Source: an uncultured Porphyromonadaceae bacterium
GTDB taxonomy: Bacteria > Bacteroidota > Bacteroidia > Bacteroidales > Muribaculaceae
DNA length: 64,000 nt
Direction of reading: 5' to 3'
Assembly: GCA_900544305.1 (NCBI GenBank)
Contig: UQUV01000009.1
Coordinates: 4,612 to 68,611, forward strand
A program made the position numbers and the translations under genes. The notes below the pieces were generated by a model, which saw only the letters and a program-made list of their open reading frames with translations, made no database searches and was not told the DNA's origin. Of this stretch, positions 12,513 to 59,060 are shown piece after piece; positions within the stretch are counted from its first letter, which is position 1, and each line of letters begins with the position of its first letter.

Positions 12513-12689
12513 CCGAGTCCCCATAACCACAGGCAAAGGTAATTCGTGTTCTTCCCGTACAAGCAAGGCCAAGCCCTTCGGGTTCGTGGAAAAAATCATC
12601 CTCGCCCCGGAGGGCTTGCGGTATTTTTTCCCGAAGCCTTGCATGTACGGAACACGACCTTTTTAAGCCTGTAGTTATGGGAACTCCGG
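12513..12689 (+). repeat. Long imperfect-palindrome element, copy 1 (core GGAAAAAATCATCCTCGC...GCGGTATTTTTTCCCGAAGCCTTGC)
   Basis: Outer arms CCGAGTCCCCATAACCACAGGCAAAGGT / ACCTTTTTAAGCCTGTAGTTATGGGAACTCCGG. Inner arms CCCGTACAAGCAAGG / CCTTGCATGTACGG. Small hairpins GCCCTTCGGGT and GCCCCGGAGGGC. Ends about 35 nt upstream of the ATG at 12724. Confidence 0.7.
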
Positions 12690-12723
12690 CCCCAGAAGCC
12701 GGACTAACAAAAAATCAAATGTT

Positions 12724-13554
12724 ATGTTACAGGCAACAAAGAACAAGTACACGGTGGAAACACTCAAACCACTGAACATTCTGTACGATCATGAACACTG
12801 GCTGACACAGCAGGACGTGGATATGGCCAACGGCTATGTGGAACTGATAGAAAGGACACGCTCGGAAAAGACTCCACAGATAGGTGACAGACTCATCTAT
12901 GTGGACAGATACGGGAAATATTACGGCAATGCCCTTATTGAAAACAATGATGAAGAGAGCGGTCGGATTTCCATCTGTGAAGAACCTTATATTCCCTTTG
13001 TATGGGAGCAGGACGCCAATATCCGGCTGAGCGTCAGCGGAGGGGCCTTCCACCATATTGACCCCAAGCAATTGAAATTCGTCAGATGGACGGAAGGTGC
13101 ATTCAAGGACTGGGGAAACTGCGGAGCGTGTGCCAACGGTGCCGTCACATTCACGGCAAGAGTGCCGTTATGGTCCTATTCCGAACCTGACCCTCTCTAC
13201 GGCGATTTCACCACGGAAACATGGAGACAGTATTATCTGACAAAGGACACGGGTCCGGACGCACGCAACCTGTACCAGGGCTTCGAAAAGGCTTTCAGGA
13301 CCGAAGATGACTTCCAGCAGTTCCTGAAGGACTATGAAGGGACCATGTTCAAGGGCAACAGGGAAAACCAGATCGTACTCTGGTGTTTCCGACATGAAAA
13401 CCGGTTCCTGCCGCAGCACGAATGGGACAAGATAGATGCCCCGGCCATGGAACGGCGTCTCAACTTCCATCCCGAACAGGTCAAGCTGGTCAAGGACATG
13501 GACAGCCACATTACCTACTGTTACCGTATCAAACCCGAAATTGACAATCTCTAA
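12724..13554 (+). CDS. Hypothetical protein (ICE cargo)
   Basis: 276-aa ORF, first gene after repeat copy 1. No recognisable catalytic motif. Confidence 0.55.
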   Translation: MLQATKNKYTVETLKPLNILYDHEHWLTQQDVDMANGYVELIERTRSEKTPQIGDRLIYVDRYGKYYGNALIENNDEESGRISICEEPYIPFVWEQDANIRLSVSGGAFHHIDPKQLKFVRWTEGAFKDWGNCGACANGAVTFTARVPLWSYSEPDPLYGDFTTETWRQYYLTKDTGPDARNLYQGFEKAFRTEDDFQQFLKDYEGTMFKGNRENQIVLWCFRHENRFLPQHEWDKIDAPAMERRLNFHPEQVKLVKDMDSHITYCYRIKPEIDNL

Positions 13555-13566
13555 AACAATACAGTT

Positions 13567-14508
13567 ATGCAGACAACAGCAACAAGAACAGCAGGCAGCC
13601 ACACTGACCTGCTCACAGGAATCCTGAACGTACAAGTGAGAAACGAGGACAAGATTACAGAACAGGACAGGCAGTATTGCCAGCTACAGCAGGACCAGCT
13701 CTACAAAACGCTTGACCGTATCGACCGATGGTATGACATCTTCAAGGAAGAAGCGGAACGGTATCGGGAAATCAAGAGCTTCAAGTATGAGGATAACGGT
13801 AAGGTCTCCATACGGAATTTCTATTTCAACAACAGCGGGGAGGATGACTATACCCACAACGAATTCAAACCGTTTGACCTCATCAACGAGCTTGCGGACA
13901 ACAACTGCAATGCCAACGCGAATTTCGCGAGTCGCATCATTTCCTATTTCAACAGGACCTACAATGTAGATGTACCCATTCCTGTAATCGACGAGAAGGC
14001 CATGCGCATGGGATTCCGTCCGGTCTACCAGACTTACGTGGACATGGTCATTGAACACCTCGGCGGAAAAAGTTTCCGTGAGACCGCAGAGGAAGAACTG
14101 CTGGTCCGTTTCCTGAAAACGGTACAGCCTTCCCGCTGGAGCAAGGTGAAGCCCGAACTGAAAAAGGACAAGATAACTTTCCCTGACATCGTATCCTGGG
14201 ACAGCATCCATCTGGAATACCACCGGGAATATGAGTTCTCGTATGACTGCGGAAGGAAAGTGGACATTTTCTGCGAAGGTATCGCATACGGAGCAGATGA
14301 CGTGATAAACGGTTCAAGCGGTATGGTCATCGGCCTTGACAGACGCGATGTGGATATAACCGAATGGTACAACCTCACCCTGAGCAACGCAGAACAGATC
14401 AAGTTCTACAAGAACGGACGCATCGACGTACGCTTCAAGGACAGCCAGGCCGCAGAGAACTGCTACAGAAGGCTGCGGCTGGATGAAATCACACTCAGGG
14501 AAGAGTGA
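13567..14508 (+). CDS. Hypothetical protein (ICE cargo)
   Basis: 313-aa ORF, 12 nt after the previous gene. Followed by a terminator hairpin. Confidence 0.55.
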   Translation: MQTTATRTAGSHTDLLTGILNVQVRNEDKITEQDRQYCQLQQDQLYKTLDRIDRWYDIFKEEAERYREIKSFKYEDNGKVSIRNFYFNNSGEDDYTHNEFKPFDLINELADNNCNANANFASRIISYFNRTYNVDVPIPVIDEKAMRMGFRPVYQTYVDMVIEHLGGKSFRETAEEELLVRFLKTVQPSRWSKVKPELKKDKITFPDIVSWDSIHLEYHREYEFSYDCGRKVDIFCEGIAYGADDVINGSSGMVIGLDRRDVDITEWYNLTLSNAEQIKFYKNGRIDVRFKDSQAAENCYRRLRLDEITLREE

Positions 14509-14527
14509 TTCATGAAATACTTATTCA

Positions 14528-14566
14528 GACACCCCGTAAGACATCCTTGCGGGGTGTCTTCGTTTC
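14528..14566 (+). terminator. Rho-independent terminator
   Basis: GACACCCCG (14528-14536) ... CGGGGTGTC (14550-14558) followed by TTCGTTTCC. Confidence 0.6.
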
Positions 14567-14588
14567 CAACCATTAAAAAAGAAAAGAC

Positions 14589-16313
14589 ATGTATGCCATC
14601 ATACCCCAACAGATTCCTCAGGACAGGCGTGCCGAGATCAACGAGAAAATCCTTTTCGCCATAGACTCCGGCAAGGACCTCGTTCCGAAGGAAAGCATCT
14701 ACAACTGCTACACGGGAATCGGAGGACTGCACAACCTCAGGCAGGCGGATTTCACCAGCTACCATGAATACGCCGAGGCCAAGAAGGAATTCGAGATGGG
14801 ACAGTTCTTCACCCCGCACGACATATGCCGGAACATGATGGAAGCCCTCTCCCCGACATCCACGGAAATGGTTCTTGACATGTGCTGCGGCATGGGCAAC
14901 TTCTTCAACCATCTGCCCAACCTGCACAACGCATACGGCTTCGACATCGACGGCAAGGCGGTGGCCGTTGCCAGATACCTCTACCCGGAAGCTCATATCG
15001 AGAAATGCGACATACAGCTGTACAATCCCGAACAGCGTTTCGACATCATTGTCGGAAATCCGCCCTTCAACCTGAAATTTGATTACAGGCTGTCGCAGGA
15101 ATTCTACATGGACAAGGCCTATGACGTGCTCAACCCTGCCGGAATCCTGATGGTCATCGTCCCTCTCTCCTTCATGCAGAACGAGTTCTGGGAAAAGACA
15201 CGCGTGGCGAAAATCAACTCGAATTTCTCCTTTATCGGCCAGACCAGGCTGGAACATTCAGCCTTCTCTACGGTGGGCGTGCAGAATTTCGCAACAAAAA
15301 TCATGGTATTCCTCCGCCGTTCCCTCCATATTGAAATGCAGCTCTACAACGCGGAAGAGTTTGTCAGCATGGATGAGCTGAAGAAACGCATAGCCGAAGT
15401 GCGGAAAATGAAACACCGGCTGCGCCTCCAGCTGATGCGGGAGTGCAACCATATAGACAAAGAAGAGCTGGAACAGTTCGAGTACAGGCTCGCCAAATAC
15501 ATGTACGAGCTGAAAGCCCATGCCGTGCTGAACAGGCATGTCGAAAAGGCGGAGGCGCTGGTGTCCAAATTCCGCAACCAGAAACCGCCGGAAAATGCCA
15601 CCCGGGAACAGATAAAGGAATGGGAACGCAAGAAGCTGACCACCGGCAAGGTTCTCGGCATCATCCGCAGGTACATCACCTCGCAGAACGTGGTGCAGCG
15701 CAAGGAAGTGGCATTGGTGAAGACATCCTACGGCTTCAAGCTGAAGCAATATGCCCCGCGTCTGCTTGACAAGGTCACGCACAAGGCCGCAGGCATCAAT
15801 GACCTCATACTCGGAAGGGCCGAACTCCCGATGCCGGAAAACGTCACGGAAAAGAACATGCGGCAGATCCGTGCCGCCAGTAAACTGATACGGCGCAAAC
15901 AGAGGCAATACGAGACCCAGAATCTCCAGTTTGCGGAAATGCGGGAAGATGCCGGCCTGAAGGAATACCTGGACCGCACCACATTCATCAACAAGGACGG
16001 TGAAGTCTGCGAATTCACGGACTTGCAGAAACACGACCTGAACCTCGTGTTGCAGAAACGCTACGCCCTGCTGAACTGGCAGCAGGGTTCAGGCAAGACC
16101 GCCGCCGTCTATCACAGGGCGAAATACCTGCTCAAGTTCAGAAAGGCAAAGAACGTCATCATACTTGCCCCGGCCATCGCCACCAACATGACCTGGATAC
16201 CGTTCCTTACCATAAACAAGGAACGCTTCCGTACAATACAGACCGCCGGCGACTCAACAACATACCGGAAGGGACATTCCTTGTCGTCTCCACCTCCATG
16301 CTCCGGAAACTGA
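14589..16313 (+). CDS. N6-adenine DNA methyltransferase domain fused to the SNF2-family helicase N-lobe (upstream part of a frameshifted methylase-helicase gene)
   Basis: Motif I VLDMCCGMGNFF and motif IV IIVGNPPFN (amino-MTase). C-terminal NWQQGSGKT (helicase motif I) and VIILAPAIATNM (Ia). The ORF ends in a short out-of-frame tail. Confidence 0.75.
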   Translation: MYAIIPQQIPQDRRAEINEKILFAIDSGKDLVPKESIYNCYTGIGGLHNLRQADFTSYHEYAEAKKEFEMGQFFTPHDICRNMMEALSPTSTEMVLDMCCGMGNFFNHLPNLHNAYGFDIDGKAVAVARYLYPEAHIEKCDIQLYNPEQRFDIIVGNPPFNLKFDYRLSQEFYMDKAYDVLNPAGILMVIVPLSFMQNEFWEKTRVAKINSNFSFIGQTRLEHSAFSTVGVQNFATKIMVFLRRSLHIEMQLYNAEEFVSMDELKKRIAEVRKMKHRLRLQLMRECNHIDKEELEQFEYRLAKYMYELKAHAVLNRHVEKAEALVSKFRNQKPPENATREQIKEWERKKLTTGKVLGIIRRYITSQNVVQRKEVALVKTSYGFKLKQYAPRLLDKVTHKAAGINDLILGRAELPMPENVTEKNMRQIRAASKLIRRKQRQYETQNLQFAEMREDAGLKEYLDRTTFINKDGEVCEFTDLQKHDLNLVLQKRYALLNWQQGSGKTAAVYHRAKYLLKFRKAKNVIILAPAIATNMTWIPFLTINKERFRTIQTAGDSTTYRKGHSLSSPPPCSGN

Positions 16314-17590
16314 AAAGAGGACTGATGCGTTTCGTGAAACGCACTTCCGGCAAGCTGTGCCTTGTCTTCGACGAGTCGGACGAAATCACCAATCCCACAT
16401 CGCAGCGTACAAGAAACATCCTGTGCATATTCAGGAGGCTCAGGTACAAGATCCTCGACACGGGAACAACCACCCGCAACAACATCGCGGAACTGTACAG
16501 CCAGTTCGAACTACTCTACAACAACTCCGTAAACATGATATGCTGGAGCCCGCAGGTCTACCACGAAAACAGGGACCACGAGATAGAGGAAGAGAACAAC
16601 CCGGATTACGGGACACCGTTCCCCGCCTTCAGGGGGCATGTCCTTTTCCGTGCCTGCCACTGTCCGGGGAAAGCCACCGTATTCGGCATCGAGAAACAGA
16701 ACCAGGACGTGTACAACAAGGATGAACTCTCCGAACTTATCGGCAAGACGGTCATCACCCGTAAATTCAGGGACTTCGCGGGAGAGAAATACCGGATACG
16801 GACACATACCGTCCGTCCCTCGGAAGGAGAACACGAGGTGTACCGTGTCATCATCGAGGAATTCTGCCGCATCTGTGAGCTGTACTACAACAGCACGGGA
16901 GACACGAAAAAGGATGCAGGACTGAGACTCATGAGGCAGATCAAGCTGCTTATCAAAGCCTGTTCGGTACCTCACCTGATAGAGGGATACTACGGTGACA
17001 GTTATCCTTCCAAGACCCGCTATATTGAAAGGCTCATAAGGACAATACTGGGTAAGGTTGCCATCGGATGTACCACATTGGCGGCCTTCGACCTCTACGA
17101 GAGCTATATCCGGGAACATTTTCCCGACAGACCTGTATTTGTGGTCAAGGGAGATGTAGCCTTCAAGAAACGGCAGAGCATCGTGACCGAATTCGACTCC
17201 ACCATCAACGGCATCCTGATATGCACACAGCAGAGCCTGAGCAGCTCCGTGAACATACCTACCTGCAACGACGTGATACTGGAATCCCTGCAGTGGAACA
17301 TCCCCCGTATGGAACAGTTCTACTTCCGTTTCATCCGTCTCGATTCCAAAGAAATGAAGGATGTCCACTACGTCACCTACGAAGATTCGGTCGAACAGAA
17401 CCTGATGGCACTGGTACTGACCAAGGAGCGTCTGAACGAATTCATCAAGACCGGTGAGGTCAAGGAACAGTCAGAAATCTTCGAGGAGTTCGACATCACA
17501 ATGTCTGTCATCGACAGCCTGCTCATCCGCACGCAGGACAGTGAAGGCAAAATACACATCAGCTGGGGAAGCCAGCGCATAACAGAATAA
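16298..17590 (+). CDS. SNF2-family helicase motifs II-VI (downstream part of the frameshifted methylase-helicase gene; its frame is open upstream to about 16200)
   Basis: LVFDESDEI (DExx box), ILDTGTTTRNNIAELYSQFELL (motif III), ICTQQSLSSSVNIP (V), QFYFRFIRLDS (VI). Upstream in the same frame reads ...NIPEGTFLVVSTSMLRKL, which continues the helicase. Confidence 0.7.
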   Translation: MLRKLKRGLMRFVKRTSGKLCLVFDESDEITNPTSQRTRNILCIFRRLRYKILDTGTTTRNNIAELYSQFELLYNNSVNMICWSPQVYHENRDHEIEEENNPDYGTPFPAFRGHVLFRACHCPGKATVFGIEKQNQDVYNKDELSELIGKTVITRKFRDFAGEKYRIRTHTVRPSEGEHEVYRVIIEEFCRICELYYNSTGDTKKDAGLRLMRQIKLLIKACSVPHLIEGYYGDSYPSKTRYIERLIRTILGKVAIGCTTLAAFDLYESYIREHFPDRPVFVVKGDVAFKKRQSIVTEFDSTINGILICTQQSLSSSVNIPTCNDVILESLQWNIPRMEQFYFRFIRLDSKEMKDVHYVTYEDSVEQNLMALVLTKERLNEFIKTGEVKEQSEIFEEFDITMSVIDSLLIRTQDSEGKIHISWGSQRITE

Positions 17591-17613
17591 ATATGAACCG
17601 TATGAAGAAGACC

Positions 17614-17784
17614 GGGAGTTCCATTCCCACCGACAAAGGTAAGCCGCGTCCCCATCGGCTGAGCAAGGTCAGGCCGCAGGCGGTTTTCAGGAAAATCATC
17701 CTCGCGGAGCTGCGGTATTTTCCCGAAAAACCCTGCACAGCCGGGACACGGCACCTTGTCGAGGTCGGTGGAATGGAATCCCCG
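17614..17784 (+). repeat. Long imperfect-palindrome element, copy 2
   Basis: Outer arms GGGAGTTCCATTCCCACCGACAAAGGT / ACCTTGTCGAGGTCGGTGGAATGGAATCCCC. Core GGAAAATCATCCTCGC...GCGGTATTTTCCCGAAAAACCCTGC. Ends 28 nt upstream of the ATG at 17813. Confidence 0.7.
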
Positions 17785-17812
17785 ACATCCACATACATAA
17801 AAGACAAGTAAT

Positions 17813-18304
17813 ATGGATCTGAACAATGCAGAGATTGCCGTGACCACACAGCATCTCATTGACATAAAGGATTACAGGGACTACTGGCTGCACCTGTCCG
17901 ACTACAGCGACATGGGTGAGTTCCTGTGCGCCTGTTCCGACCTGTTTCCCGGGGAAAAGGAACCGGAATACCGGTATCCGAAATGGGAAAACATTCCGGA
18001 CACACTGGTCAGCCGTGAATGGCTCTGTCCCAACTTCTTCGAGATCAGGGATGCCCTTGAAAGGCTCGAAGAGGAAGAAACGGAGTTTTTCATAAGCTGG
18101 AGCAGAAGTTACGGATATGACATCACCACGGATGACCCGCACATGATGGTATCACACTACCATGACCTGTACGGGGATACCGTCACGGAAACGGAAGAAG
18201 ACGCGGACACGGGAGAAGATGCCCTGATATACACGGGCGTATCAAGCTACTACTGCGACATGCTTCCATTCCGTTACGAAATATTTGATGACAATTATGA
18301 CTAA
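17813..18304 (+). CDS. Highly acidic small protein, possibly ArdA-like antirestriction (DNA mimic)
   Basis: 163 aa with D/E-rich runs (EEEETEFF, TETEEDADTGED). Size and composition resemble ArdA. The family assignment was not verified. Confidence 0.4.
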   Translation: MDLNNAEIAVTTQHLIDIKDYRDYWLHLSDYSDMGEFLCACSDLFPGEKEPEYRYPKWENIPDTLVSREWLCPNFFEIRDALERLEEEETEFFISWSRSYGYDITTDDPHMMVSHYHDLYGDTVTETEEDADTGEDALIYTGVSSYYCDMLPFRYEIFDDNYD

Positions 18305-18316
18305 AAGACAAAAGAT

Positions 18317-24698: not shown

Positions 24699-24821
24699 GA
24701 TTTTTCAAATTAGGATTTGCAAAAGTACACCATTCCTTTGTCAAAGACGAACAAATCAATGGGTTTCTCACCGACATACCTGCAAGAAAATACAACGACA
24801 CACAACCTGTATATTTTATTT

Positions 24822-25010
24822 TCCTCCCTGCAAAGGTAGTCCCGTGTCCAACGTACCCGGACAAGGTCAGGCCCCTATGGGGTTGGCTGAAAGAAAATCA
24901 TCCTCGCCGATGGCTGCGGTATTTTCTTTCGCCAAACCTTGCGGGTACGGTCACGGGACAGTCAGGCAGGTGAAAAATAAAAAATACCGGCTCCCGGAGC
25001 CGGACGTGTT
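24822..25010 (+). repeat. Long imperfect-palindrome element, copy 3
   Basis: 5' CCTGCAAAGGTAGTCCCGTG ... 3' CACGGGACAGTCAGGCAGG. Hairpins GGCCCCTATGGGGTT and GCCGATGGC. Core GAAAGAAAATCATCCTCGC...GCGGTATTTTCTTTCGCCAAACCTTGC. 3' tail AAATAAAAAATACCGGC plus hairpin CCGGCTCCCGGAGCCGG. Ends about 24 nt upstream of the ATG at 25034. Confidence 0.7.
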
Positions 25011-43065: not shown

Positions 43066-44308
43066 GATCAACAGGGGTGTATCGCTCTACGGGGCGGTCA
43101 TCTACAACCAGCGTAAAGTGGACGAGGCAACCGCCCGTATCATCGCGGGTAACCGCATGATTACCGACCTCAGCGGAAATCCCCACAATGTCATGCAGCA
43201 GACCCTGTGGGCTTTCGAGAGCTACCTCGCCGCCAACAGAAACACGGAGAAGCCGGTACTGCATATCTCCCTGAACCCATCGGTGGACGACCGCCTCACG
43301 GACGGGCAGTTCGCGGAACTGGCACGCGAGTACATGCAGAAGATGGGCTACGGCGACCAGCCCTACATCGTCTATCTGCACGAAGACATTGACCGCAGGC
43401 ATGTCCATATCGTCTCCACCTGCGTGAAGGAGAACGGCGAGAAAATCAGTGACGCATACGAATGGAACCGCTCGATGAAAGCCTGCCGGGAACTGGAAAA
43501 CAAATTCGGGCTCAAACCTGTGGCAGACAAGCGGAACGAACTGCTGGCACCGTATCTAAAGAAAGCGGACTACCGGGACGGGGACGTGAAACGTCAGGTC
43601 GGTAATATCCTCAAAAGTGTGTTCACCGCCTACCGCTTCCAGACATTCGGGGAGTTCAGTGCCATGCTCTCATGCTTCAACATCGAGGCCAAACAGGTTC
43701 GGGGAGAATTTGAAGGCTCACCCTACAACGGTATCGTATATACCCTGACGGACGATGCGGGTAGGCCGGTATGCACGCCCATCAAGTCTTCGCTCATCGG
43801 CAAGCGCTTCGGCTACGAAGGGATAGAAAAAAGGATTGCCGTCAATGTCCGAGATTTCAGAAACCGGAAGTGGCAGCCGAAAATCCATGATGCCGTCACG
43901 CTGGCCATGCACGGCTGCCGAGGAAACCGGGAAGATTTCATCCGGCTGCTCGGGGAAAAGGGCATTGACGTGGTGTTCAGGGAAAACGAGGAAGGCCGTA
44001 TCTACGGCGTGACCTTCATAGACCACAGAAACCGTGAGGTATATAACGGTTCCCGTCTGGGCAAGAAGTTTTCCGCCAACGCCTTCGAACAGCTTTTTAA
44101 CAGGCCGCAGGATTTTCCGGAGCCGGAATCCACCGGACAATATGCCTCCACACGGGAGAGCCTTTCCGACAACATGGAAAGCACCATCGAGCAGGCTTTC
44201 GGAATATTCAGTACCGACATCAACGGACCGGACCCGCAGGAGGAGGCACTCGCCCGCAGACTGCAACGCAAGAAAAAGAAGAAACGCCGTTCACGCGGCA
44301 TATCCTGA
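43055..44308 (+). CDS. mobB: MobB-like relaxase (MobA/VirD2 superfamily)
   Basis: HISLNP and HEDIDRRHVHIV (His-triad) relaxase motifs. Confidence 0.85.
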   Translation: MVAKINRGVSLYGAVIYNQRKVDEATARIIAGNRMITDLSGNPHNVMQQTLWAFESYLAANRNTEKPVLHISLNPSVDDRLTDGQFAELAREYMQKMGYGDQPYIVYLHEDIDRRHVHIVSTCVKENGEKISDAYEWNRSMKACRELENKFGLKPVADKRNELLAPYLKKADYRDGDVKRQVGNILKSVFTAYRFQTFGEFSAMLSCFNIEAKQVRGEFEGSPYNGIVYTLTDDAGRPVCTPIKSSLIGKRFGYEGIEKRIAVNVRDFRNRKWQPKIHDAVTLAMHGCRGNREDFIRLLGEKGIDVVFRENEEGRIYGVTFIDHRNREVYNGSRLGKKFSANAFEQLFNRPQDFPEPESTGQYASTRESLSDNMESTIEQAFGIFSTDINGPDPQEEALARRLQRKKKKKRRSRGIS

Positions 44309-44342
44309 TTGTCAATTACCAACCATCAAAATTTTTACAGTT

Positions 44343-46370
44343 ATGCAACAAGAAGATGATTTAAGAGGACTGGCCAAGGTCATGGAGTTCATGCGTGCCA
44401 TTTCCATCGTGTTTATTGTGATCCATGTCTACTGGTTCTGCTACAGCGCATTCGTGGATATGGGCATCAACATCGGAGTCGTGGACAGGATTCTGCTGAA
44501 CTTCCAGAGGACGGCAGGACTGTTCAGCAACCTACTCGTGACGAAAGTGTTCGCCTTCATATTCCTGGGACTTTCGTGTCTGGGTACGAAAGGTGTCAAG
44601 AACCAGAAGATGACGTGGCGGAAAATATACGCCGCCTTCCTCGGCGGCATCGTCCTGTTCTTCATGAACTGGTGGATGCTCGACCTGCCGTTCAGTACGA
44701 CAGTGAATGCTACCGTATATACGCTGACGCTCACCGCAGGCTACATTCTCCTGCTTATGTCGGGAATATGGATCAGCCGTATGCTGAAACACAACCTCAT
44801 GGAAGACGTATTCAACACCGCCAACGAAAGTTTCATGCAGGAAACAAAGCTTATGGAAAACGAGTATTCCGTCAACCTGCCCACGAAATTTGTCTATCAG
44901 GGCAAGGAATGGGACGGCTGGATCAACATCGTAAACCCGTTCAGAGCCTCTATCGTACTGGGAACACCCGGCTCCGGAAAGAGCTATGCCGTGGTAAACA
45001 ACTACATCAAACAGCAGATTGAGAAATCCTTTGCCATGTATATCTATGACTACAAGTTTCCGGACCTTTCGGAGATAGCCTACAACCATCTGCTCAAGCA
45101 CAGACAACATTACAAAGTCAAGCCGGAATTCTATGTCATCAATTTCGACGACCCCAGACGCAGCCACCGATGCAATCCAATCAATCCAAGATTCATGGCG
45201 GACATATCGGATGCCTATGAGTCAGCTTACACGATAATGCTCAACCTGAACAAGACCTGGATACAGAAACAGGGTGATTTTTTCGTGGAGTCACCGATTA
45301 TCCTGCTTGCCGCAATCATCTGGTATTTGCGGATTTACAAGGACGGAAAGTATTGCACGTTCCCTCATGCAATCGAATTTCTTAACAAGCCGTATGCCGA
45401 TATCTTCACGATTCTTACCTCTTATCCGTCCCTCGAAAACTATCTTTCTCCCTTTATGGACGCATGGCAAGGTGGAGCTCAAGACCAGCTCCAGGGCCAG
45501 ATAGCAAGTGCGAAAATCCCTCTTTCGCGAATGATCTCGCCACAGCTTTACTGGGTGATGACGGGAGACGATTTCACCCTTGACCTGAACAATCCCGAAC
45601 ACCCCAAAATCCTCTGCGTGGGCAATAATCCGGACAGGCAGAATATATATTCGGCGGCTCTCGGCCTGTACAATTCGCGCATCGTCAAATTGGTGAACAA
45701 GAAAGGACAACTGAAAAGTTCCATCATCATCGACGAGCTTCCGACCATCTATTTCCGTGGTATCGACAACCTGATTGCGACCGCCCGAAGCAACAAGGTG
45801 GCCGTCTGTCTCGGCTTCCAGGACTTCTCGCAGCTTGCACGTGACTACGGCGACAAGGAGGCGAAGGTTATCCAGAACACGGTGGGCAATATCTTCAGCG
45901 GACAGGTGGTCGGAGAAACGGCAAAATCACTGTCGGAACGGTTCGGCAAGATTCTCCAGCAGCGGCAGTCCATATCCATCAACCGTCAGGACACTTCGAC
46001 TTCCATCAACACGCAGCTTGATTCCCTGATACCCGCTTCCAAGATAGCCAATCTTTCGCAGGGTACATTCGTTGGCAGCGTGGCAGACAATTTCGGGGAA
46101 GAGATAGACCAGAAGATTTTCCATGCCCGCATCATCGTGGACAGCGCAAAGGTATCGGAAGAGATGAAAGCCTACAAGAAAATTCCTGTCATCAACGAGT
46201 TCAGGGACGCGGACGGAAACGATATCATGCAGCAGCAGATTGACCGCAACTACTCGCAGATAAAGGCGGATGTCTTGCAGATAATAGAAGAAGAAATGGA
46301 AAGAATAAAAAATGATCCGGAGCTGAGACACCTCATCCCGCAGCAGGAGGGAGAAGAAAACAATGACTGA
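44343..46370 (+). CDS. mobC: MobC-like type IV coupling protein (VirD4/TraG-family ATPase)
   Basis: N-terminal TM segments, Walker A LGTPGSGKS, Walker B IIIDELP. Start trimmed to MQQEDDLRGLAKV (ATG 44343). Confidence 0.85.
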   Translation: MQQEDDLRGLAKVMEFMRAISIVFIVIHVYWFCYSAFVDMGINIGVVDRILLNFQRTAGLFSNLLVTKVFAFIFLGLSCLGTKGVKNQKMTWRKIYAAFLGGIVLFFMNWWMLDLPFSTTVNATVYTLTLTAGYILLLMSGIWISRMLKHNLMEDVFNTANESFMQETKLMENEYSVNLPTKFVYQGKEWDGWINIVNPFRASIVLGTPGSGKSYAVVNNYIKQQIEKSFAMYIYDYKFPDLSEIAYNHLLKHRQHYKVKPEFYVINFDDPRRSHRCNPINPRFMADISDAYESAYTIMLNLNKTWIQKQGDFFVESPIILLAAIIWYLRIYKDGKYCTFPHAIEFLNKPYADIFTILTSYPSLENYLSPFMDAWQGGAQDQLQGQIASAKIPLSRMISPQLYWVMTGDDFTLDLNNPEHPKILCVGNNPDRQNIYSAALGLYNSRIVKLVNKKGQLKSSIIIDELPTIYFRGIDNLIATARSNKVAVCLGFQDFSQLARDYGDKEAKVIQNTVGNIFSGQVVGETAKSLSERFGKILQQRQSISINRQDTSTSINTQLDSLIPASKIANLSQGTFVGSVADNFGEEIDQKIFHARIIVDSAKVSEEMKAYKKIPVINEFRDADGNDIMQQQIDRNYSQIKADVLQIIEEEMERIKNDPELRHLIPQQEGEENND

Positions 46371-46400
46371 AAATAGAGAAAAAGGGAGACCGCTGTTTTA

Positions 46401-46577
46401 TTTCCGCCTGCAAAGGTCGTCCCGTGCCCGCTGGATTGTGCAAGGCCGGGCCCCTCCGTGGTTTGCTGAAAAAATCATCCTCGCACGAGTGCTCCGGTAT
46501 TTTTTCGCAAAGCCTTGCGCAATCCGGCACGGGACAGAAAGGCAGGCAAGAAATAAAATACCGGCTTGACAAGCCGC
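46401..46577 (+). repeat. Long imperfect-palindrome element, copy 4
   Basis: 5' GCCTGCAAAGGTCGTCCCGTGCCCGCTGGATTGTGCAAGGCC / 3' GCCTTGCGCAATCCGGCACGGGACAGAAAGGCAGGC. Hairpins GGGCCCCTCCGTGG and GCACGAGTGC. Core GAAAAAATCATCCTCGC...CTCCGGTATTTTTTCGCAAAGCCTTGC. Tail AAATAAAATACCGGC plus a hairpin. Starts 31 nt after the mobC stop and ends about 19 nt before the ATG at 46596. Confidence 0.7.
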
Positions 46578-46862
46578 AGATGTCTAACTCAAAAAATGAA
46601 AGATATGAGCAGAAGCAACTTCACCCCGATGGAAAGATTCCATGAGATTCTAAACGGACACGGACTACAGGCCATGAACGTAGGTATAAATCATATCCGC
46701 ATCTTTAGGGACGGCCGGAAAATATTCGACTACTATCCGCTGAGGATGAAACTCTTCGATTACCACAACTGGTACCAGCTTACCTATCCATCCTTCGGCA
46801 ATGGCGACGGGAAATGGGAACAGGAACTTCAGGAGATAATCGGCAGACTTTCTGCCGCATAA
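46566..46862 (+). CDS. Hypothetical small protein (the start may be MKDMSRSNF at 46596)
   Basis: 98-aa ORF after repeat copy 4. Confidence 0.4.
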   Translation: MTSRRCLTQKMKDMSRSNFTPMERFHEILNGHGLQAMNVGINHIRIFRDGRKIFDYYPLRMKLFDYHNWYQLTYPSFGNGDGKWEQELQEIIGRLSAA

Positions 46863-52849: not shown

Positions 52850-53212
52850 ATGAAAACAAATCGAATTGTATGTAGAAATCTGCCTGTATTGATAATCGTT
52901 TTTTTGGGTCTTTTTATATGCCAGGCGTGTTCGAAAGATACCCCTAATTTAAACACCATCCGTGTACAAGTAGAGACAAATTCAGATGAACCAGTCAGAA
53001 TCTATGGAACAAAGGATGGTGGAGAAACCGGAATTGTTATAAAAAAGAATTATGAAAAAACATATGAATTAGAAGGTGATGGTTTCTCTATAGAAGCCAG
53101 ATGTCAAGATGAGAACACCCTAATTAAGATTAATATATGGGTAAATGGTAAACTTAAAAAGAACGTATCAGGTAATAAATATGTTACAAGTGGATATATA
53201 TCATTGTTATAA
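52850..53212 (+). CDS. Small lipoprotein
   Basis: 120 aa. Lipobox ICQACSKD. Confidence 0.45.
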   Translation: MKTNRIVCRNLPVLIIVFLGLFICQACSKDTPNLNTIRVQVETNSDEPVRIYGTKDGGETGIVIKKNYEKTYELEGDGFSIEARCQDENTLIKINIWVNGKLKKNVSGNKYVTSGYISLL

Positions 53213-53235: not shown

Positions 53236-53290
53236 AATATATTGACCCATTTCGGGGCTGTTTTGGAATATCTTCAATTCCAGAACAGCC
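53236..53290 (+). terminator. Hairpin terminator at the right edge of the AT-rich island
   Basis: CGGGGCTGTTTTGG...CCAGAACAGCCCCG inverted repeat followed by a T-rich stretch. Confidence 0.5.
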
Positions 53291-53976
53291 CCGAATAGTT
53301 TTATCAAAAATAACTCAATGAAAAATCTATACCTAAATTTTATAACGAATACAAAACAACTTCTGCAATCCTTATTCAAAAATATACGGTCATAAGCCAC
53401 GCTTCACTTGACAAGTCCCTTCAGAGAAGTTAACTCGGAGGGCGAATACCTCCACGTTCAAGCCTCCGGTTTTCGGGACACAAAATTCCCTGCGGTAATT
53501 TTCCGCCCGAAAAAACGCTCCGGTATTGCCGTCCGAGTTGGGGAAAGGACCGGGACTTAGCAAGCGAAGCGACCTACGACGCATAGATACAGGTCAACAT
53601 AAAAAAGAATCTGACGGGAGAACCATGCTCCCGTATGCCGTCCCAATGGATTACGCCATCCGGTTATTCCCGTAAAAAAATCCGCTTCCTGTCACAAAAG
53701 GACACATCAAGGGGGGGACAAAAGCAGCTCGCTCCCAACTCTGCATAATTACAGTTTTTCCTTTTCTTCCGTGCGACTGCGTGTACCGCCATGCCCTTGT
53801 CTGTATGGTTTGTTCCCGTCATTTCCCTTTCCTTTGCCGCCTCTCGCTTTTTCTCCTTTTCCTGCCGTTTTACTCCGTTTTTTCACTCCGTTTTCTCCGG
53901 CCTGCGGTGTAATGTGATGACACAAGATGTAATGTATATCCTAACACATTGTAAATCAATTATATATCAATTTTTC

Positions 53977-56167: not shown

Positions 56168-58309
56168 ATGGAAAACGGGAAACGGCTTAATTTTTATCCT
56201 GACATTATGATAGCAATCATCGCAGAAAAGCCGAGTGTAGGCATGGACATAGCCCGTGTAGTCGGGGCTGATACAAGAAATGACGGCTACTGTTCCGGTA
56301 ACGGATATATGGTGACCTGGGCACTGGGACACCTCGTGTCACTGGCCATGCCGGACACTTACGGTTACACGAAAACGGCGGCGGAGGAGGAGCTGCCGAT
56401 GCTGCCGGACCCGTTCCGTCTGGTCTCCCGACAGGTACGCACGGACAGGGGAATGGTCACGGACATCGCCGCCTCGAAACAGCTGAAAGTCATAGAAAGC
56501 GTGTTCAACCGCTGTGACAGCATCATCGTGGCAACGGACTGTGCGCGCGAAGGGGAACTTATCTTCCGCTGGATATACGACTTTCTGGGCTGCACGAAAC
56601 CGTTCAGACGCCTGTGGATCTCCTCGCTGACCGACGAGGCCATACGGAAAGGTCTGGAGGAACTGAAGGACGGCTCGGAATACGACAGCCTGTATGCCGC
56701 TGCAGACAGCCGCGCGAAGGCGGACTGGCTGGTGGGCATGAACGCCAGCCGTGCCCTGGCCATCGTCTCCGGCTCGTCCAACAACTCGATCGGACGGGTA
56801 CAGACGCCTACGCTCGCCATGATATGCAGCCGCTACAGGGAGAACCGCAGTTTCGTATCCACACCATACTGGCAGCTGCATGTCACCCTCAATGGCGGCA
56901 CGTCACACCGCCGCTTCTTCCATCCCGCGACCTTTGACGACAGGCAGAAGGCGGAAGCCGCCTACCGCAGTCTCTCTCCCGATTCTTCGGCGACGGTTAC
57001 GAAGGTGGAGCGCAGGAAAACCCTGCAACAGCCGCCGCTGCTCTACGACCTGACGGCACTCCAGAAGGACTGCAACGTGCACCTCGACCTGCCCGCGGCA
57101 AAGACGCTGGACATCGCCCAGTCGCTCTACGAGAAGAAGCTCATTTCCTACCCGAGAACGGGAAGCCGGTATATCCCGCACGACGTGATGGCCTGTGTGC
57201 CCGGTCTGCTGGAAAGGATAATGGCCATGCCCGGATTCGCTACAAGTGCCGGAATCCTTGACTTTGCGCGTCTCAACACCCGTAGCGTGGACGACAGTAA
57301 AGTGACGGACCACCATGCCCTCATCACGACCGGCATAGCTCCCGAAGGGCTTTCCGAAGCGGAAGAGGCCGTCTATACGCTGATAGCCGGACGTATGCTG
57401 GAGGCGTTCTCGCCATGCTGCGAGAAGGAGCTGATTCTTATGGAATGCCGTCTGGACAACATGGATTTCCGCTCAAAAAGCTCCATTGTCGTCAGTCCGG
57501 GATGGCGCGGCATCTTCCGCAGGAAAGAGGACAGGCAGGACGACGAACCGGAAACCGACGAGGGTACGGCCGTATTTGCCGAAGGGGACACGGTCCCTGT
57601 TTCAGGATTCGGACTGGCCCAGAAGAAGACCGTGCCCAGACCGCTCTATACCGAAGCCACGCTGCTGGCAGCAATGGAGACCTGCGGCAGGGAGATAGCC
57701 GACGAACAGGCACGCGAGGCCGTGAAGGAGCTGGGCATCGGCACGCCCGCCACAAGAGCCGCCATCATCACCACACTGTTCAAACGTGACTATATCGCCC
57801 GCTCCGGCAAGAGCATCGTCCCCACGGAAAAGGGACTCCATATCTACGATGCGGTGAAGGACATGCTCGTGGCGGATGTTTCCCTGACAGGAAGCTGGGA
57901 GAAGACCCTGCTCCAGATAGAGCGGCACACACTCGGACCGGACACGTTCATGGCATCCATCACGGACTACACCCGCAAGGCTACCCGTGAAATCCTGAAC
58001 CTCAGCCTTCCGGCGGTAGCAGCCCGCACGTTCATCTGTCCCAAATGCAAGACCGGACACATCATCGTCAGGGAGAAGGGTGCCCGCTGCGACAATAAAG
58101 GGTGCGGACTGACCGTGTACCGCAGATTCCTGAACAAGGAACTGACGGACCAGCATCTGGAACAGCTTTTCTCCTCCGGCTCCACACGGCTCATCAAGGG
58201 ATTCAAGGGAAAGAAGGGCGTGGCTTTCGACGCTTCGGTCACTTTCGACGCCGGGTTCACCCTGACACTCTCGTTCCCCAAAAACGGGAACGGCAGGAAA
58301 AGGAAATGA
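56168..58309 (+). CDS. topB: DNA topoisomerase III (Exc-like type IA topoisomerase of CTnDOT-family elements)
   Basis: Toprim start IAEKPS, GYMVTWALGHL. 713 aa. C-terminal zinc-ribbon CPKCKTGH. Confidence 0.85.
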   Translation: MENGKRLNFYPDIMIAIIAEKPSVGMDIARVVGADTRNDGYCSGNGYMVTWALGHLVSLAMPDTYGYTKTAAEEELPMLPDPFRLVSRQVRTDRGMVTDIAASKQLKVIESVFNRCDSIIVATDCAREGELIFRWIYDFLGCTKPFRRLWISSLTDEAIRKGLEELKDGSEYDSLYAAADSRAKADWLVGMNASRALAIVSGSSNNSIGRVQTPTLAMICSRYRENRSFVSTPYWQLHVTLNGGTSHRRFFHPATFDDRQKAEAAYRSLSPDSSATVTKVERRKTLQQPPLLYDLTALQKDCNVHLDLPAAKTLDIAQSLYEKKLISYPRTGSRYIPHDVMACVPGLLERIMAMPGFATSAGILDFARLNTRSVDDSKVTDHHALITTGIAPEGLSEAEEAVYTLIAGRMLEAFSPCCEKELILMECRLDNMDFRSKSSIVVSPGWRGIFRRKEDRQDDEPETDEGTAVFAEGDTVPVSGFGLAQKKTVPRPLYTEATLLAAMETCGREIADEQAREAVKELGIGTPATRAAIITTLFKRDYIARSGKSIVPTEKGLHIYDAVKDMLVADVSLTGSWEKTLLQIERHTLGPDTFMASITDYTRKATREILNLSLPAVAARTFICPKCKTGHIIVREKGARCDNKGCGLTVYRRFLNKELTDQHLEQLFSSGSTRLIKGFKGKKGVAFDASVTFDAGFTLTLSFPKNGNGRKRK

Positions 58310-58326
58310 TGAAGCCATCCCGATTC

Positions 58327-58465
58327 GAGGGGCAAAGGTCGCAGCCCGCCCGTTTCCACCGGCAAGGTCTGGCCTTACGGTTTCTGGGAAAAATCATCCT
58401 CGCCCGAGGCTCCGGTATTTTTCCCGAAAACCTTGCCTGTGGAGGCGGACTGCAAGAAAGCCCCT
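58327..58465 (+). repeat. Long imperfect-palindrome element, copy 5
   Basis: Arms GGGCAAAGGTCGCAGCCCGCCCGTTTCCACCGGCAAGG / CCTTGCCTGTGGAGGCGGACTGCAAGAAAGCCCC. Core GGGAAAAATCATCCTCGCCCGAGGCTCCGGTATTTTTCCCGAAAACCTTGC. Starts 18 nt after the exc stop and ends about 30 nt upstream of the ATG at 58496. Confidence 0.7.
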
Positions 58466-58495
58466 GAAACCGGGAATGGCATTCCCGCCAAACAC

Positions 58496-58741
58496 ATGAA
58501 GATTATGAAAGCAAAAGAACGTATCAGAAAGATAGCGGACAGCAGATGGGCAAGGACACTCGCGCTGGCCGTAACAGCAGCCATCATATTCAGCTGGCTC
58601 TATTCCCACGGTATATCGCCTGTATGGACCGCCGTGGCCATCATCTGTTTCAGGGGACTCTTCAGGTTCCTCTACCGTATAGCCTGTTTTCTCGTGGCAC
58701 TGGCCATCATTCTGTGCATACTGAGTTTTCTGGTCTTCTGA
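58496..58741 (+). CDS. Small 2-TM membrane protein flanked by repeat copies 5 and 6
   Basis: MKIMKAKERIRKIADSRWARTLALAVTAAIIFSWLY.... 81 aa. Confidence 0.4.
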   Translation: MKIMKAKERIRKIADSRWARTLALAVTAAIIFSWLYSHGISPVWTAVAIICFRGLFRFLYRIACFLVALAIILCILSFLVF

Positions 58742-58893
58742 AATCTGACGATATGGAACATGCACGGAATTTATCATTGCAGCATAAGGGAGCTGTCCGG
58801 GAGCGGGCGGCTCTTTTTGTATCCGTCACAACCGGAAATGACACGGGAAGAAAAGGGAAAGGACTAAAAACACAGACATTGGCAAACCGAGAA

Positions 58894-59060
58894 CTACAGG
58901 GCAAAGTTGGCAAACGCTTCTTGTCGGACGGCAAGGTCAGGCCGCAAGCGGTTTCGGAAAAAATCATCCTCGCTGCGCTCCGGTATTTTTCCCGAAAACC
59001 CTGCCTTTCCGGAAGCATTTGCCGTTGGGCCCTTGTAGTTCAACGGGCTGCCAAAGCCCG
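58894..59060 (+). repeat. Long imperfect-palindrome element, copy 6
   Basis: Arms CTACAGGGCAAAGTTGGCAAACGCTTCTTGTCGGACGGCAAGG / CCCTGCCTTTCCGGAAGCATTTGCCGTTGGGCCCTTGTAG. Core GGAAAAAATCATCCTCGCTGCGCTCCGGTATTTTTCCCGAAAACCCTGC. 3' hairpin CGGGCTGCCAAAGCCCG. Ends about 27 nt upstream of the ATG at 59088. Confidence 0.7.

Follow-up and report, generated by a model that had tools for sequence, protein, structure and literature searches.

Repeated imperfect hairpins ahead of gene blocks in a Bacteroidales ICE: a candidate family of Frpo-like single-stranded-DNA promoters

The locus and its six hairpin copies

The window, i.e. the whole stretch of 64,000 nucleotides analysed here (contig UQUV01000009.1 of an uncultured Porphyromonadaceae bacterium), contains an integrated ICE, with chromosomal genes left of ~12.2 kb flanking the ICE end near the first of six imperfect palindromes (Table 1). 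Copy 1 lies at the left end of the ICE, upstream of a DUF4121 / MTase / helicase block; its minus-strand DNA fold, closed by the outermost pair 12517-12684, has a free energy of -64 kcal/mol. A helicase ORF ending at 17590 lies upstream of copy 2, which precedes an ArdA-like gene and an operon with DUF4313 and LPD29/DnaJ. Copy 3 possesses an extended basal stem (24806-24827 / 24969-24990) and is located upstream of DUF4120, DUF932-like and DUF1848 genes. Copy 4 (basal stem 46390-46404 / 46550-46564) is found immediately 3' of the coupling-protein gene, with small genes including DUF6926 downstream. Copy 5 starts 14 nt past the stop of a topoisomerase (exc-like) gene, with topoisomerase domains found in 56168-58309, and is followed by an 81-aa membrane-like ORF. 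A 71-aa ORF and the PRTRC cassette follow copy 6, with PRTRC_E, Prok-E2_D and ThiF domains downstream.

The sequence-only reading, made without database searches, had placed all six copies correctly, and its claim of a single shared orientation is borne out: the whole window contains the core AAAATCATCCTCGC six times and no more, always on the plus strand (12592, 17692, 24894, 46471, 58390 and 58960; chance expectation 0.77, a count of six attained by 0 of 100 shuffles). The 19-35 nt given there between element end and first ATG likewise agree with the element ends it used. An unfiltered covariance model (CM) scan of the whole window returned these six copies and no others, with 113-145 bits on the minus strand vs 9-17 bits on the plus strand. 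Mean column identity among the copies is 63%.

Table 1. Positions of the hairpin copies, their boxes, predicted start sites and the transfer genes in the window
Feature	Position	Strand	Remarks
Copy 1 hairpin	12517-12684; model core 12524-12675	-	CM 142.5 bits
Copy 2 hairpin	17614-17784; model core 17624-17772	-	CM 131.7 bits and fold
Copy 3 hairpin	24806-24990; model core 24821-24974	-	CM 113 bits
Copy 4 hairpin	46390-46579; model core 46401-46550	-	CM 135.8 bits and fold
Copy 5 hairpin	58323-58468	-	CM 144.7 bits
Copy 6 hairpin	58873-59060; model core 58892-59037	-	CM 119.7 bits and fold
-7 box, copy 1	12534-12541	-	TACCTTTG
-7 box, copy 2	17634-17641	-	TACCTTTG
-7 box, copy 3	24831-24838	-	TACCTTTG
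-7 box, copy 4	46411-46418	-	GACCTTTG
-7 box, copy 5	58333-58340	-	GACCTTTG
-7 box, copy 6	58902-58909	-	CAACTTTG
-33-like CCTTG, copy 1	12564-12568	-	conserved, paired
-33-like CCTTG, copies 2-6	17664-17668, 24862-24866, 46441-46445, 58363-58367, 58932-58936	-	
Apical domain, copy 1	12590-12632	-	invariant columns; same domain in all six copies
Predicted sense-transcript start, copy 1	12672-12673	+	from DNA-fold pair map and 4-5 nt box-to-start distance
Predicted starts, copies 2-6	17769, ~24968-24970, 46547-46549, 58465, 59035-59036	+	prediction only
Small GC-rich hairpin between large hairpin and ATG, copy 1	12686-12702	+	CCGGCCCCAGAAGCCGG, A-rich tract next
Similar small hairpins	24987-25003, 46564-46579, 58467-58483, 59044-59060	+	
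oriT core	42452-42510	-	inverted repeat 42471-42510, conserved block ATAGCAAGTTGTG on its left
Accessory gene flanking relaxase	42595-43065		
Relaxase gene (MobA/VirD2-type)	43055-44308	+	Pfam PF03432, PF19514, PF02534 across relaxase and flanking genes
Coupling-protein gene flanking relaxase	44034-46370		

The relaxase gene serves as the reference for element orientation. The oriT core was recognised from its inverted repeat and by aligning it with related ICEs, among them the divergent L199. By analogy with the architecture of RP4, R388 and R1162, a minus-strand nick 3' of the inverted repeat is inferred; the side of the repeat on which the conserved block is found likewise places the nick on the minus strand, so that the relaxase gene would enter last, the general rule for relaxases (PMC11541004). 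The minus strand is inferred to be the transferred strand from the co-orientation of the relaxase gene, the geometry of repeat and block, and this enters-last rule. Counting against minus-strand transfer, Peed et al. 2010 reportedly placed the putative nick of CTn341 no more than 100 bp from mobA; such a site would be compatible with the opposite flank of the repeat and perhaps with the opposite strand. Transfer of the minus strand would bring in ~15 kb of tra genes ahead of any hairpin, and three of the copies only late, unlike the clustering of Frpo in leading regions.

Family, fold and folding strand

The six copies are part of a family in Bacteroidales ICEs that numbers more than 70 distinct elements, whose base pairs show strong compensatory change. 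Rfam contains no match at the gathering score and none relevant up to E=5. No match was obtained by blastn in PLSDB (72,556 plasmids), which should include Frpo-carrying F-like plasmids, and the family is absent from the searchable literature.

Relative to gene starts, the elements keep a constant position. A co-directional ATG ORF begins 27-59 nt after the model core in ~66 of 68 elements, genes of at least 15 unrelated families are found in this place, and co-directional ORFs upstream often end 13-40 nt before the element. Orientation is the same as in the window in 66/66 hits at relaxase-anchored metagenome loci, and at genome loci 93/93 relations to backbone genes (36-99% protein identity) are as in the window. 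One hairpin-plus-gene module is inserted backwards in the tra operon of relatives, and its hairpin orientation still matches the window. No copy precedes any minus-strand operon in the window and the related ICE loci examined. Owing to shared ancestry among the family members, fewer independent observations underlie counts such as 66/66 than the figures suggest.

Folding of each copy far exceeds that of shuffled sequence (z-scores -2 to -8). Compensatory changes are present in 25 of 46 pairs among the six window copies alone. Among 73 distinct family members, 92% of the cells are paired vs 33-49% with slid partners, and double changes occur in 36 of 45 pairs, values attained by 0 of 500 shuffles. 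The earlier proposal that structure is conserved, and not only sequence, is thus supported by compensatory change in the six copies as well as in the wider family. In the family alignment, three sequence-fixed blocks alternate with covarying stems.

Wobble pairs (177 G-T vs 59 A-C) favour the minus strand, i.e. the template of the downstream genes, as the folding strand. DNA parameters likewise make the minus strand the more stable one in 55 of 74 elements (p=6e-7), and RNA parameters do so in 57 of 74. The plus strand likewise folds well, with z-scores from -2 to -8.

The apical domain reads GGAAAAAATCATCCTCGC, small variable hairpin, GCGGTATTTTTTCC on the plus strand. It is composed of an A/T helix, a fixed internal loop and a side hairpin, which form a three-way junction. 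Its pairs exhibit no covariation. The domain may be an UP-like element or a factor-binding site.

Promoter-like boxes on the minus-strand hairpin

Read on the opposite strand, the invariant CAAAGGT at the left end of the element, overlooked as a promoter box in the sequence-only reading, corresponds to the Bacteroidota sigma-ABfr -7 box (TAHHTTTG), and the invariant GCAAGG likewise gives a -33-like CCTTG. In the minus-strand hairpin, the two boxes occupy the 3' arm and thus the strand opposite to the downstream genes. Owing to their place on the 3' arm, transcription would leave the hairpin base toward the genes; as they lie opposite these genes, only the folded single strand would rebuild a gene-directed promoter.

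The -7 box is present as nAnnTTTG in 66 of 74 elements and as TAnnTTTG in 49 of 74, with TTT(A/C) in place of TTTG in the remaining 8/74. Within the block (T)A-HH-TTTG, A is conserved in 100%, TTT in 96-100% and G in 94%; the middle two bases are variable and never G. At the level of sequence, the block matches exactly the published consensus TAHHTTTG (T-12, A-11, T-8, T-7, T-6, G-5; PMC6847099), and the hairpin boxes are compatible with the -33/-7 promoter architecture of Bacteroidota (PMC7366714). The -33-like site is 96-100% conserved and paired in 99-100% of folds, its match to the -33 box being limited to TTG within CCTTG. The -7 box is paired in just 31-46% of folds and lies mostly in an internal loop; the duplex past it has a median length of 24.5 nt.

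On the 3' arm, the spacer between -33 and -7 measures 20-24 nt in the family (mode 22-23) and 22-23 nt in the six copies. The template arm is 3-4 nt shorter than this non-template spacer, so that a 3-4-nt bulge is conserved. In the modelled fold, the bulge would cut the 22-23-nt spacer to ~19 bp, in the hairpin form only. Chen et al. 2007 are said to have found a 19-bp spacer optimal.

No plus-strand TAnnTTTG had been noted between element and ATG, which holds in the six copies and family-wide: plus-strand -7 boxes number 4 in 71 elements over the span -120 to +60, a background level. A -7 box does exist inside the element, on the other strand.

The distance from sigma-ABfr box to start site is 4-5 nt (PMC6847099). 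Start sites predicted with this distance (Table 1) would give leaders of 31-65 nt.

Interpretation and rival explanations

We interpret the elements as Frpo-like single-stranded-DNA promoters of a new family without homology to Frpo, at a probability of roughly 0.6. Among the options listed in the sequence-only reading, a single-stranded-DNA promoter is favoured by strand bias, boxes and constant orientation, transcription start remaining unproven. Frpo hairpins restore -35/-10 boxes and direct the expression of early genes in the leading region, e.g. for anti-restriction and establishment (PMC9849209, PMC11541004). Two features of the Frpo/ssi class are present, the long imperfect, structure-conserved hairpin and the primary-sigma boxes rebuilt in it and aimed at genes. 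As in F Frpo1, F Frpo2 and ColIb-P9 ssi, a long imperfect hairpin on one strand carries the two boxes of the host sigma in its stem, transcription would proceed outward into co-oriented and presumably early genes, and several copies are present per element, presumed inactive as duplex (PMC9849209, PMC11541004). Sequence similarity is lacking, however, and a sequence homologue of Frpo was rejected, with no blastn match in PLSDB and boxes of the Bacteroidota sigma-ABfr -33/-7 type instead of sigma-70 -35/-10. Further differences from Frpo/ssi are the three-way junction with its invariant apical domain, the -7 box in an internal loop, the conserved bulge that sets spacer length, the spread of copies around an integrative element and not in a leading region only, and the Bacteroidota host. 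A plain promoter leaves the apical domain, the most conserved part, unexplained, which counts against our preferred explanation, as do the partial -33 match and the elements with TTT(A/C) for TTTG.

According to this explanation, the ICE probably uses its hairpins to turn genes on directly upon entering a new cell. During transfer, the entering strand would be the minus strand of the window, template of all hairpin-preceded genes, and would fold locally into hairpins of ~150-200 nt. The 3' arm would act as non-template strand, presenting from apex to base the A/T-rich apical helix, duplex CCTTG, the spacer and the -7 box. The bulge-shortened spacer would form a helix of ~19 bp, followed by a mostly looped and hence pre-melted TAHHTTTG and then ~24 nt of duplex. 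Host RNA polymerase holoenzyme could bind this rebuilt promoter, initiate 4-5 nt past the box and copy the 5' arm, then the unpaired strand beyond the base, into sense mRNA with the predicted leader. Blocks served in this way would include genes for the ArdA-like protein, methylase-helicase, SLOG and DUF4326, the PRTRC genes and many genes of unknown function. Synthesis of the complementary strand would abolish the hairpin, misdirect the boxes and leave the spacer over-long, so that the promoter would be off; the transcripts could also prime this synthesis. What the sequences show directly is the fold with its covariation, the boxes in their arrangement, the preference for one strand, and the constancy of place and direction. 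Polymerase binding, start site and inactivity as duplex are inferred, as is the transferred strand, in the absence of expression data.

The fold could instead act as plus-strand RNA, i.e. as a structured 5' leader or intercistronic element for stability, processing or translation, transcribed by read-through from upstream. The plus strand folds well enough for this, many copies follow a co-directional gene without a promoter gap, as for polycistronic transcription in the donor, and the distance to the ATG is constant. We consider such a leader unlikely because of the strand asymmetry: wobbles and folding energies favour the opposite strand, and the fixed blocks spell promoter boxes on the minus strand only. 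Orientation, moreover, tracks the ICE backbone and not merely the local gene, as in the backward module of the tra operon, no copy stands ahead of minus-strand operons, and Rfam offers no match. A terminator is unlikely because a U tract is lacking. An sso- or ssi-like role, in which RNA polymerase lays primers at several points of the ICE and gene expression is incidental, shares the promoter-in-hairpin architecture with our preferred explanation, and the copies are dispersed around the element, not clustered. Frpo itself is said, in the title of Masai and Arai 1997, to serve both transcription and primer synthesis. Priming alone is nevertheless quite unlikely, as it gives no rationale for the fixed 27-59-nt start-codon distance, the A-rich translation-initiation tract or the variety of associated gene families. 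The ssoA signals of rolling-circle plasmids are likewise folded single strands with promoter-like stem boxes used by RNA polymerase. They yield a short primer ending at the conserved loop motif CS-6 and are not placed before genes, whereas transcription from the present elements would be directed from the loop outward into open reading frames; the loops of the six copies show no CS-6-like TAGCGT.

A very unlikely reading takes the minus-strand boxes as ordinary duplex promoters of leftward small or antisense RNAs, with the palindrome as an upstream regulatory site. The boxes do match the sigma-ABfr consensus well, and RteR of CTnDOT, maybe one such RNA, is a 90-nt RNA with its own constitutive promoter mapped within 500 bp downstream of exc (PMC3809561), where copy 5 sits; the agreement is one of map position alone. 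RteR acts in trans to repress tra genes in the donor, in contrast to the present structured family, which has six copies here and a conserved strand that runs antisense to the genes. The elements share with duplex sigma-ABfr promoters (TTTG -33, TAnnTTTG/TAHHTTTG -7) the -7 invariants including the exclusion of G mid-box, a TTG-containing upstream box about two helical turns off, and predicted leaders in the usual range. They differ in boxes that lie opposite the served genes and face them only through the hairpin, in an upstream CTTG in place of TTTG, and in a linear spacer of 22-23 bp, above the reported optimum. Duplex promoters also leave the compensatory complementarity of the second arm and the spacer bulge unexplained, and in ~70 contexts their leftward RNAs would run antisense to the ends of unrelated genes. 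Extremely unlikely is a mobile or recombination repeat (MITE, integron attC-like folded site or HUH transposase target), a reading suggested by multiple copies of an imperfect palindrome with bulged bases, by the cassette-like variety of genes after the same element, and by the module that relatives carry within their tra operon. The six copies show no terminal inverted repeats with target-site duplications, named in the sequence-only reading as grounds for refutation, and the copies are not near-identical recent duplicates, differing by compensatory changes; a MITE or IS-derived repeat was rejected for these reasons. Like attC, the elements conserve structure over sequence, are uniformly oriented between unrelated genes, carry bulged bases and would be active as a single strand. 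In integrons, however, the attC site is cut by the integrase and marks the cassette's 3' end, whereas here the hairpin travels with downstream genes at the 5' end of its module, without a second, closing hairpin. The annotated neighbours of the copies include neither an integron-type integrase nor an HUH transposase, and attC was rejected. Promoter boxes and their geometry are not accounted for by a mobile repeat.

The interval between large hairpin and ATG, where the small hairpins lie (Table 1), has a dG of at most -4 kcal/mol in ~80% of family members, with a median z-score of -2.4.

Six hairpins in a conjugative element and their relatives

The window carries a CTnDOT/CTn341-type integrative conjugative element (ICE) of Bacteroidales, with its left end near 12.2-12.5 kb and chromosomal glycosyltransferase, pyruvate:ferredoxin oxidoreductase and pyruvate formate-lyase genes leftward of it. 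The six co-oriented hairpin elements (copies 1-6) lie exactly where the sequence-only reading had placed them, and the total hairpin length of about 170-200 nt agrees with the spans it gave. The 14-mer AAAATCATCCTCGC occurs six times in the window, always on the plus strand, against 0.77 occurrences expected by chance, and an unfiltered covariance-model scan of the window detects no further copies. All copies fold far better than shuffled sequence on both strands, and RNAalifold, applied to the six alone, finds 46 pairs with compensatory changes in 25.

A degenerate core pattern retrieved at least 120 stretches from contigs of one genome per species. The covariance model built from the six copies, a search proposed with their first description, yields at least 82 further matches in these pattern-matched loci. 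Among the matches listed, the source taxa are Bacteroides, Phocaeicola, Parabacteroides, Alistipes, Prevotella, Alloprevotella, Muribaculaceae, Odoribacter, Butyricimonas, Dysgonomonas and others; other phyla provide pattern matches, but almost no covariance-model matches. The exceptions are a few contigs of MAGs with the labels Clostridium, Acetatifactor and Agathobacter; mis-binning could account for them. The earlier claim that structure is conserved, and not just sequence, holds for the 73 distinct sequences among the matches listed: 92% of cells are paired (33-49% with slid partners), 36 of the 45 pairs have changes on both sides, and none of 500 shuffles reaches the observed pairing and covariation values. 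Rfam, searched at gathering score and at E<=5, contains nothing relevant, only a spurious miRNA match at 53252-53294 and a weak P15 match; copy 5 has no blastn match in PLSDB (72,556 plasmids). The core sequence occurs in the full text of the searchable literature only within unrelated primers, and is absent from the supplements of the B. thetaiotaomicron dRNA-seq paper.

The proposed placement in front of genes extends to the relatives: where enough flanking DNA is available, a co-directional ORF with an ATG begins 27-59 nt past the model core (the part of the hairpin covered by the covariance model) in about 66 of 68 elements among the matches listed. Co-directional upstream genes often end just 13-40 nt before the element, which leaves no room for another promoter. 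The genes that come first after the hairpin belong to at least 15 unrelated families in the matches listed, including DUF4121, DUF4120, small membrane proteins, the PRTRC leader ORF, DUF6926, YpsA-SLOG and DUF4326, and several have no Pfam match. Relative to the relaxase, all 66 model matches in 80 relaxase-anchored metagenome loci (81-99% identity) have the window's orientation, as do all 93 relations between hairpins and backbone genes (36-99% protein identity) in the species-level genome loci among the matches listed; with related sequences among them, these counts are only partly independent. The strand of the hairpin-preceded genes is also that of the mob, topoisomerase, methylase-helicase, LPD29 and PRTRC genes, with the tra genes opposite, and no minus-strand transcription unit possesses a hairpin.

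Several of the relaxase-anchored loci, from close relatives of this ICE, contain a module between traD and traE in which a hairpin is joined by a YpsA-SLOG gene (205 aa) and a 101-aa ORF. The module lies backwards to the tra operon and in the standard family orientation relative to the relaxase; the ICE of the window lacks it. Public calls of the ArdA-like gene (protein records P0001, P0003-P0005, P0013 and others) are often 235-240 aa long instead of 163 (window 17585-18304). Here the ORF is extended upstream through the hairpin, which is thus mis-annotated as coding in many assemblies.

Positions of predicted starts, ICE genes and the traD-traE module (in the window unless a locus is named)
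Feature	Position	Strand	Remarks
Copy 1, predicted start	12672-12673	plus scale	predicted leader 51-52 nt
Copy 2, predicted start	17769	plus scale	predicted leader 44 nt
Copy 3, predicted start	about 24968-24970	plus scale	predicted leader about 65 nt
Copy 4, predicted start	46547-46549	plus scale	predicted leader 47-49 nt
Copy 5, predicted start	58465	plus scale	predicted leader 31 nt
Copy 6, predicted start	59035-59036	plus scale	predicted leader 52-53 nt
Methylase-helicase ORF 1	14589-16313		N6 methylase and start of ResIII
Methylase-helicase ORF 2	16298-17590		SNF2 / helicase C
tra genes	27.5-42.0 kb	minus	last is ParA-like traA, 41208-41990
oriT	within 41990-42595
mobA (MobC_2), MobA/VirD2-type relaxase, coupling protein	42595-46370	plus
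Topoisomerase (exc-like) gene	56168-58309	plus
PRTRC cassette	from 59338	plus
traD-traE module	L142 5184-6290		also in loci L121, L129, L177, L193, L144, L152, L159, L175

Folding strand, promoter boxes and geometry

The covariance model describes the minus strand of the window. Non-Watson-Crick pairs on this strand are G-T in 177 cases and A-C in 59; with DNA parameters and no alignment, its folding energy is the lower one in 55 of 74 elements (Wilcoxon p=6e-7), and with RNA parameters in 57 of 74, both among the matches listed. Since wobble bias and folding energies favour the minus strand, the functional fold is inferred to be that of the strand complementary to the downstream genes.

Among 33 representatives that share less than 80% identity with one another, the sequence is fixed in three blocks, and the stems between them vary freely. 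These blocks are an apical domain (AAAATACCGnAGC, a small hairpin and GCGAGGATGATTTT), the motif CCTTG and, near the 3' end, (T)A-nn-TTTG, in which A is present in 100%, TTT in 96-100% and G in 94%. Among the matches listed, 66 of 74 elements have nAnnTTTG and 49 of 74 TAnnTTTG, the remainder being TAnnTTT[A/C]; the two middle bases take seven different values, with G in none. Judged from its sequence, the third block is a putative sigma-ABfr -7 element, TAHHTTTG, as refined genome-wide in Flavobacterium johnsoniae (T-12, A-11, T-8, T-7, T-6, G-5), where 4-5 nt separate it from the start site (PMC6847099). It is likewise the putative -7 half of the -33/-7 promoter architecture confirmed in B. 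thetaiotaomicron (PMC7366714). The absence of a -7 box on the gene strand, noted previously for the intervals between element and ATG, is upheld by a scan from -120 to +60 of 71 elements among the matches listed, which detects four boxes, the background level; on the minus strand the same scan detects 47 boxes at one fixed position. Minus-strand boxes left of copy-1-type elements served as positive control. The apical domain contains no TTTG-type box of a second promoter on either strand.

A regular minus-strand TATCTTTG box lies about 100 nt left of copy 1 (12400-12470), at the extreme left end of the integrated ICE, facing away from its gene blocks, and a corresponding box accompanies 15 related elements. 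Two candidates were discarded: the apical ATCCTCGC as an IncP-type nick-site lookalike found no support, and a leftward RNA of about 90 nt from the copy 6 minus-strand box to the hairpin 58790-58822 was rejected because this hairpin has a T-run on the plus strand only.

When the minus strand is folded as DNA to minimum energy, CCTTG (the -33-like box) is paired in 99-100% of the elements among the matches listed. TAnnTTT is paired in only 31-46%, which puts the box in an internal loop, and its last G is paired in 90%. Beyond the box follows a helix of median 24.5 nt (interquartile range 20-33 nt, 23 pairs; again among the matches listed), so that the duplex is rebuilt to roughly +20. The spacer between CCTTG and the box is 22-23 nt long on the box-bearing arm, and in 47 of 71 elements it exceeds its counterpart on the opposite arm by 3-4 nt (both in the matches listed). 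A 4-nt bulge, situated about 8 nt below the -33 box, makes up this difference in all six window copies, which gives a helical spacer of about 18-19 bp in the hairpin against 22-23 bp in an ordinary duplex. Chen et al. reportedly found in 2007 that a 19-bp spacer is optimal for this promoter type. The boxes are located on the 3' arm, which would thus serve as non-template strand, with the 5' arm as a template continuous with that of the downstream genes. Transcription begun 4-5 nt beyond the box would run out of the hairpin at its base and yield sense RNA. Between hairpin base and ATG, a small GC-rich hairpin precedes an A-rich tract in about 80% of the elements among the matches listed.

Mechanism, rival explanations and the transferred strand

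The best-supported mechanism, with a probability of roughly 0.6, is that each hairpin acts as a single-strand-specific sigma-ABfr promoter. The single-stranded-DNA promoter had already been suggested for the six copies, and the boxes on the folding strand are further, independent sequence evidence in its favour; experimental proof is lacking and the transferred strand is unresolved. Single-strand specificity would follow from two built-in features, the bulge-corrected spacer and the looped-out -7 box, and we speculate that, with the side hairpin extruded, the invariant A/T helix just above the -33 box could be UP-element-like. A plain promoter does not account for the fixed internal loop of the apical domain. 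A wider reading, which we consider rather unlikely, regards the hairpins as more than bare promoters, namely as modular 'early-gene cassette heads' specific to Bacteroidales ICEs, whose apical domain and three-way junction recruit a dedicated host- or ICE-encoded, possibly co-transferred factor, whose spacer bulge is a single-strand-only switch, and whose six copies time expression, and perhaps second-strand priming, around the entering strand. If so, a position behind a hairpin would mark any gene as one that serves establishment or anti-defence in gut Bacteroidales.

Among the rival explanations, a plus-strand leader RNA is disfavoured by the functional fold, inferred to sit on the strand complementary to the genes. 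A signal for priming only is compatible with the single-strand promoter, and a mobile or recombination repeat is a further rival. The boxes might also act as a regular duplex promoter directed leftward, with a possible relation to RteR. This 90-nt repressor RNA of CTnDOT is encoded in the 500 bp after exc, has its own constitutive promoter and represses the tra genes in trans (PMC3809561). Copy 5 (58323-58468) begins 14 nt after the exc-like gene, within the corresponding stretch 58310-58810, and copy-5-type hairpins, their minus-strand boxes or the small ORF 58496-58741 may overlap or explain the RteR locus, as far as map position goes, without comparison to the RteR sequence.

The weakest link of the single-strand promoter model is the identity of the folding (minus) strand with the transferred one, which is inferred along three lines. 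Relaxase genes are typically the last to enter (PMC11541004), so the transferred strand would be the template of the mob genes, i.e. the minus strand. The oriT alignment shows covariation in the inverted repeat 42471-42510, and the block directly left of it, ATAGCAAG[G/T]TGTG, is still conserved in the divergent locus L199, unlike the block to the right of the repeat. RP4, R388 and R1162 are nicked 3' of the repeat on the nicked strand, an architecture that, together with the conserved left block, places the nick on the minus strand. Finally, only the transferred strand stays single-stranded for long, which points to minus-strand transfer because the promoter is rebuilt by the minus strand only. 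A putative CTn341 nick is said to have been placed by Peed et al. in 2010 within 100 bp of mobA; it would fit the right-hand side of the repeat, against minus-strand transfer. With the minus strand transferred, the tra region would enter before the blocks of copies 3, 2 and 1, followed by the far ICE end, copies 6, 5 and 4, and mob.

The oriT region also contains nested repeats (42009-42156, 42433-42529), with the motif AAGGAATGACTG / CAGACATTCCTT near 42017, 42097 and 42136, and the main inverted repeat is enclosed by a larger symmetry, CTTCAGGC ... GCCTGAAG; all of these are possibly accessory-protein binding sites.

Comparison with known promoters and additional features

Frpo of F and the ssi promoters of ColIb-P9, in which -35/-10 boxes are rebuilt in a hairpin and drive early leading-region genes (PMC9849209, PMC11541004), appear to be functional analogues. 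The hairpins described here are not members of the Frpo sequence family, to which they have no similarity (blastn of copy 5 against PLSDB), and differ in a more elaborate architecture and in boxes of a different sigma factor. To our knowledge, most ssDNA promoters described to date come from enterobacterial plasmids and have sigma-70 boxes. The searchable literature contains nothing that links them to Bacteroides or CTnDOT-type elements, and no paper in it addresses gene expression by Bacteroidales ICEs on entry. Gene flow in the human gut takes place mainly by way of these ICEs. If the promoter reading is true, the ssDNA-promoter mechanism extends to another phylum and a different sigma factor, and single-strand specificity gains a concrete structural rule open to testing, namely bulge-corrected spacing combined with a pre-melted -7 box. 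The covariance model would then flag early-expressed genes in thousands of gut ICEs, candidates for anti-restriction or anti-defence functions that are mostly domains of unknown function at present, and the hairpin would provide a part for engineered gene delivery into Bacteroides, active only in transconjugants.

A very weak model match (25 bits) in locus L019 (1350-1496) has an entirely different apical sequence and lacks CCTTG, but is a long hairpin that has TTACCTTTG as its end at the same place; hairpin promoters with a different apex, forming a sister family, may be represented by this match. The methylase-helicase (bmhA-like) region of the window, 14589-17590, consists of two overlapping ORFs in different frames; the split may be genuine (two genes), due to a sequencing error or the mark of a frameshifted pseudogene. 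The PRTRC_E-family gene 59338-60372 contains three tandem imperfect repeats of 69 nt (23 codons) each at 59910-60078. The source of the spurious, weak Rfam match to a plant miRNA is a 19-bp near-perfect hairpin at 53251-53295, 3' of a 120-aa gene (52850-53212), which is probably a terminator.
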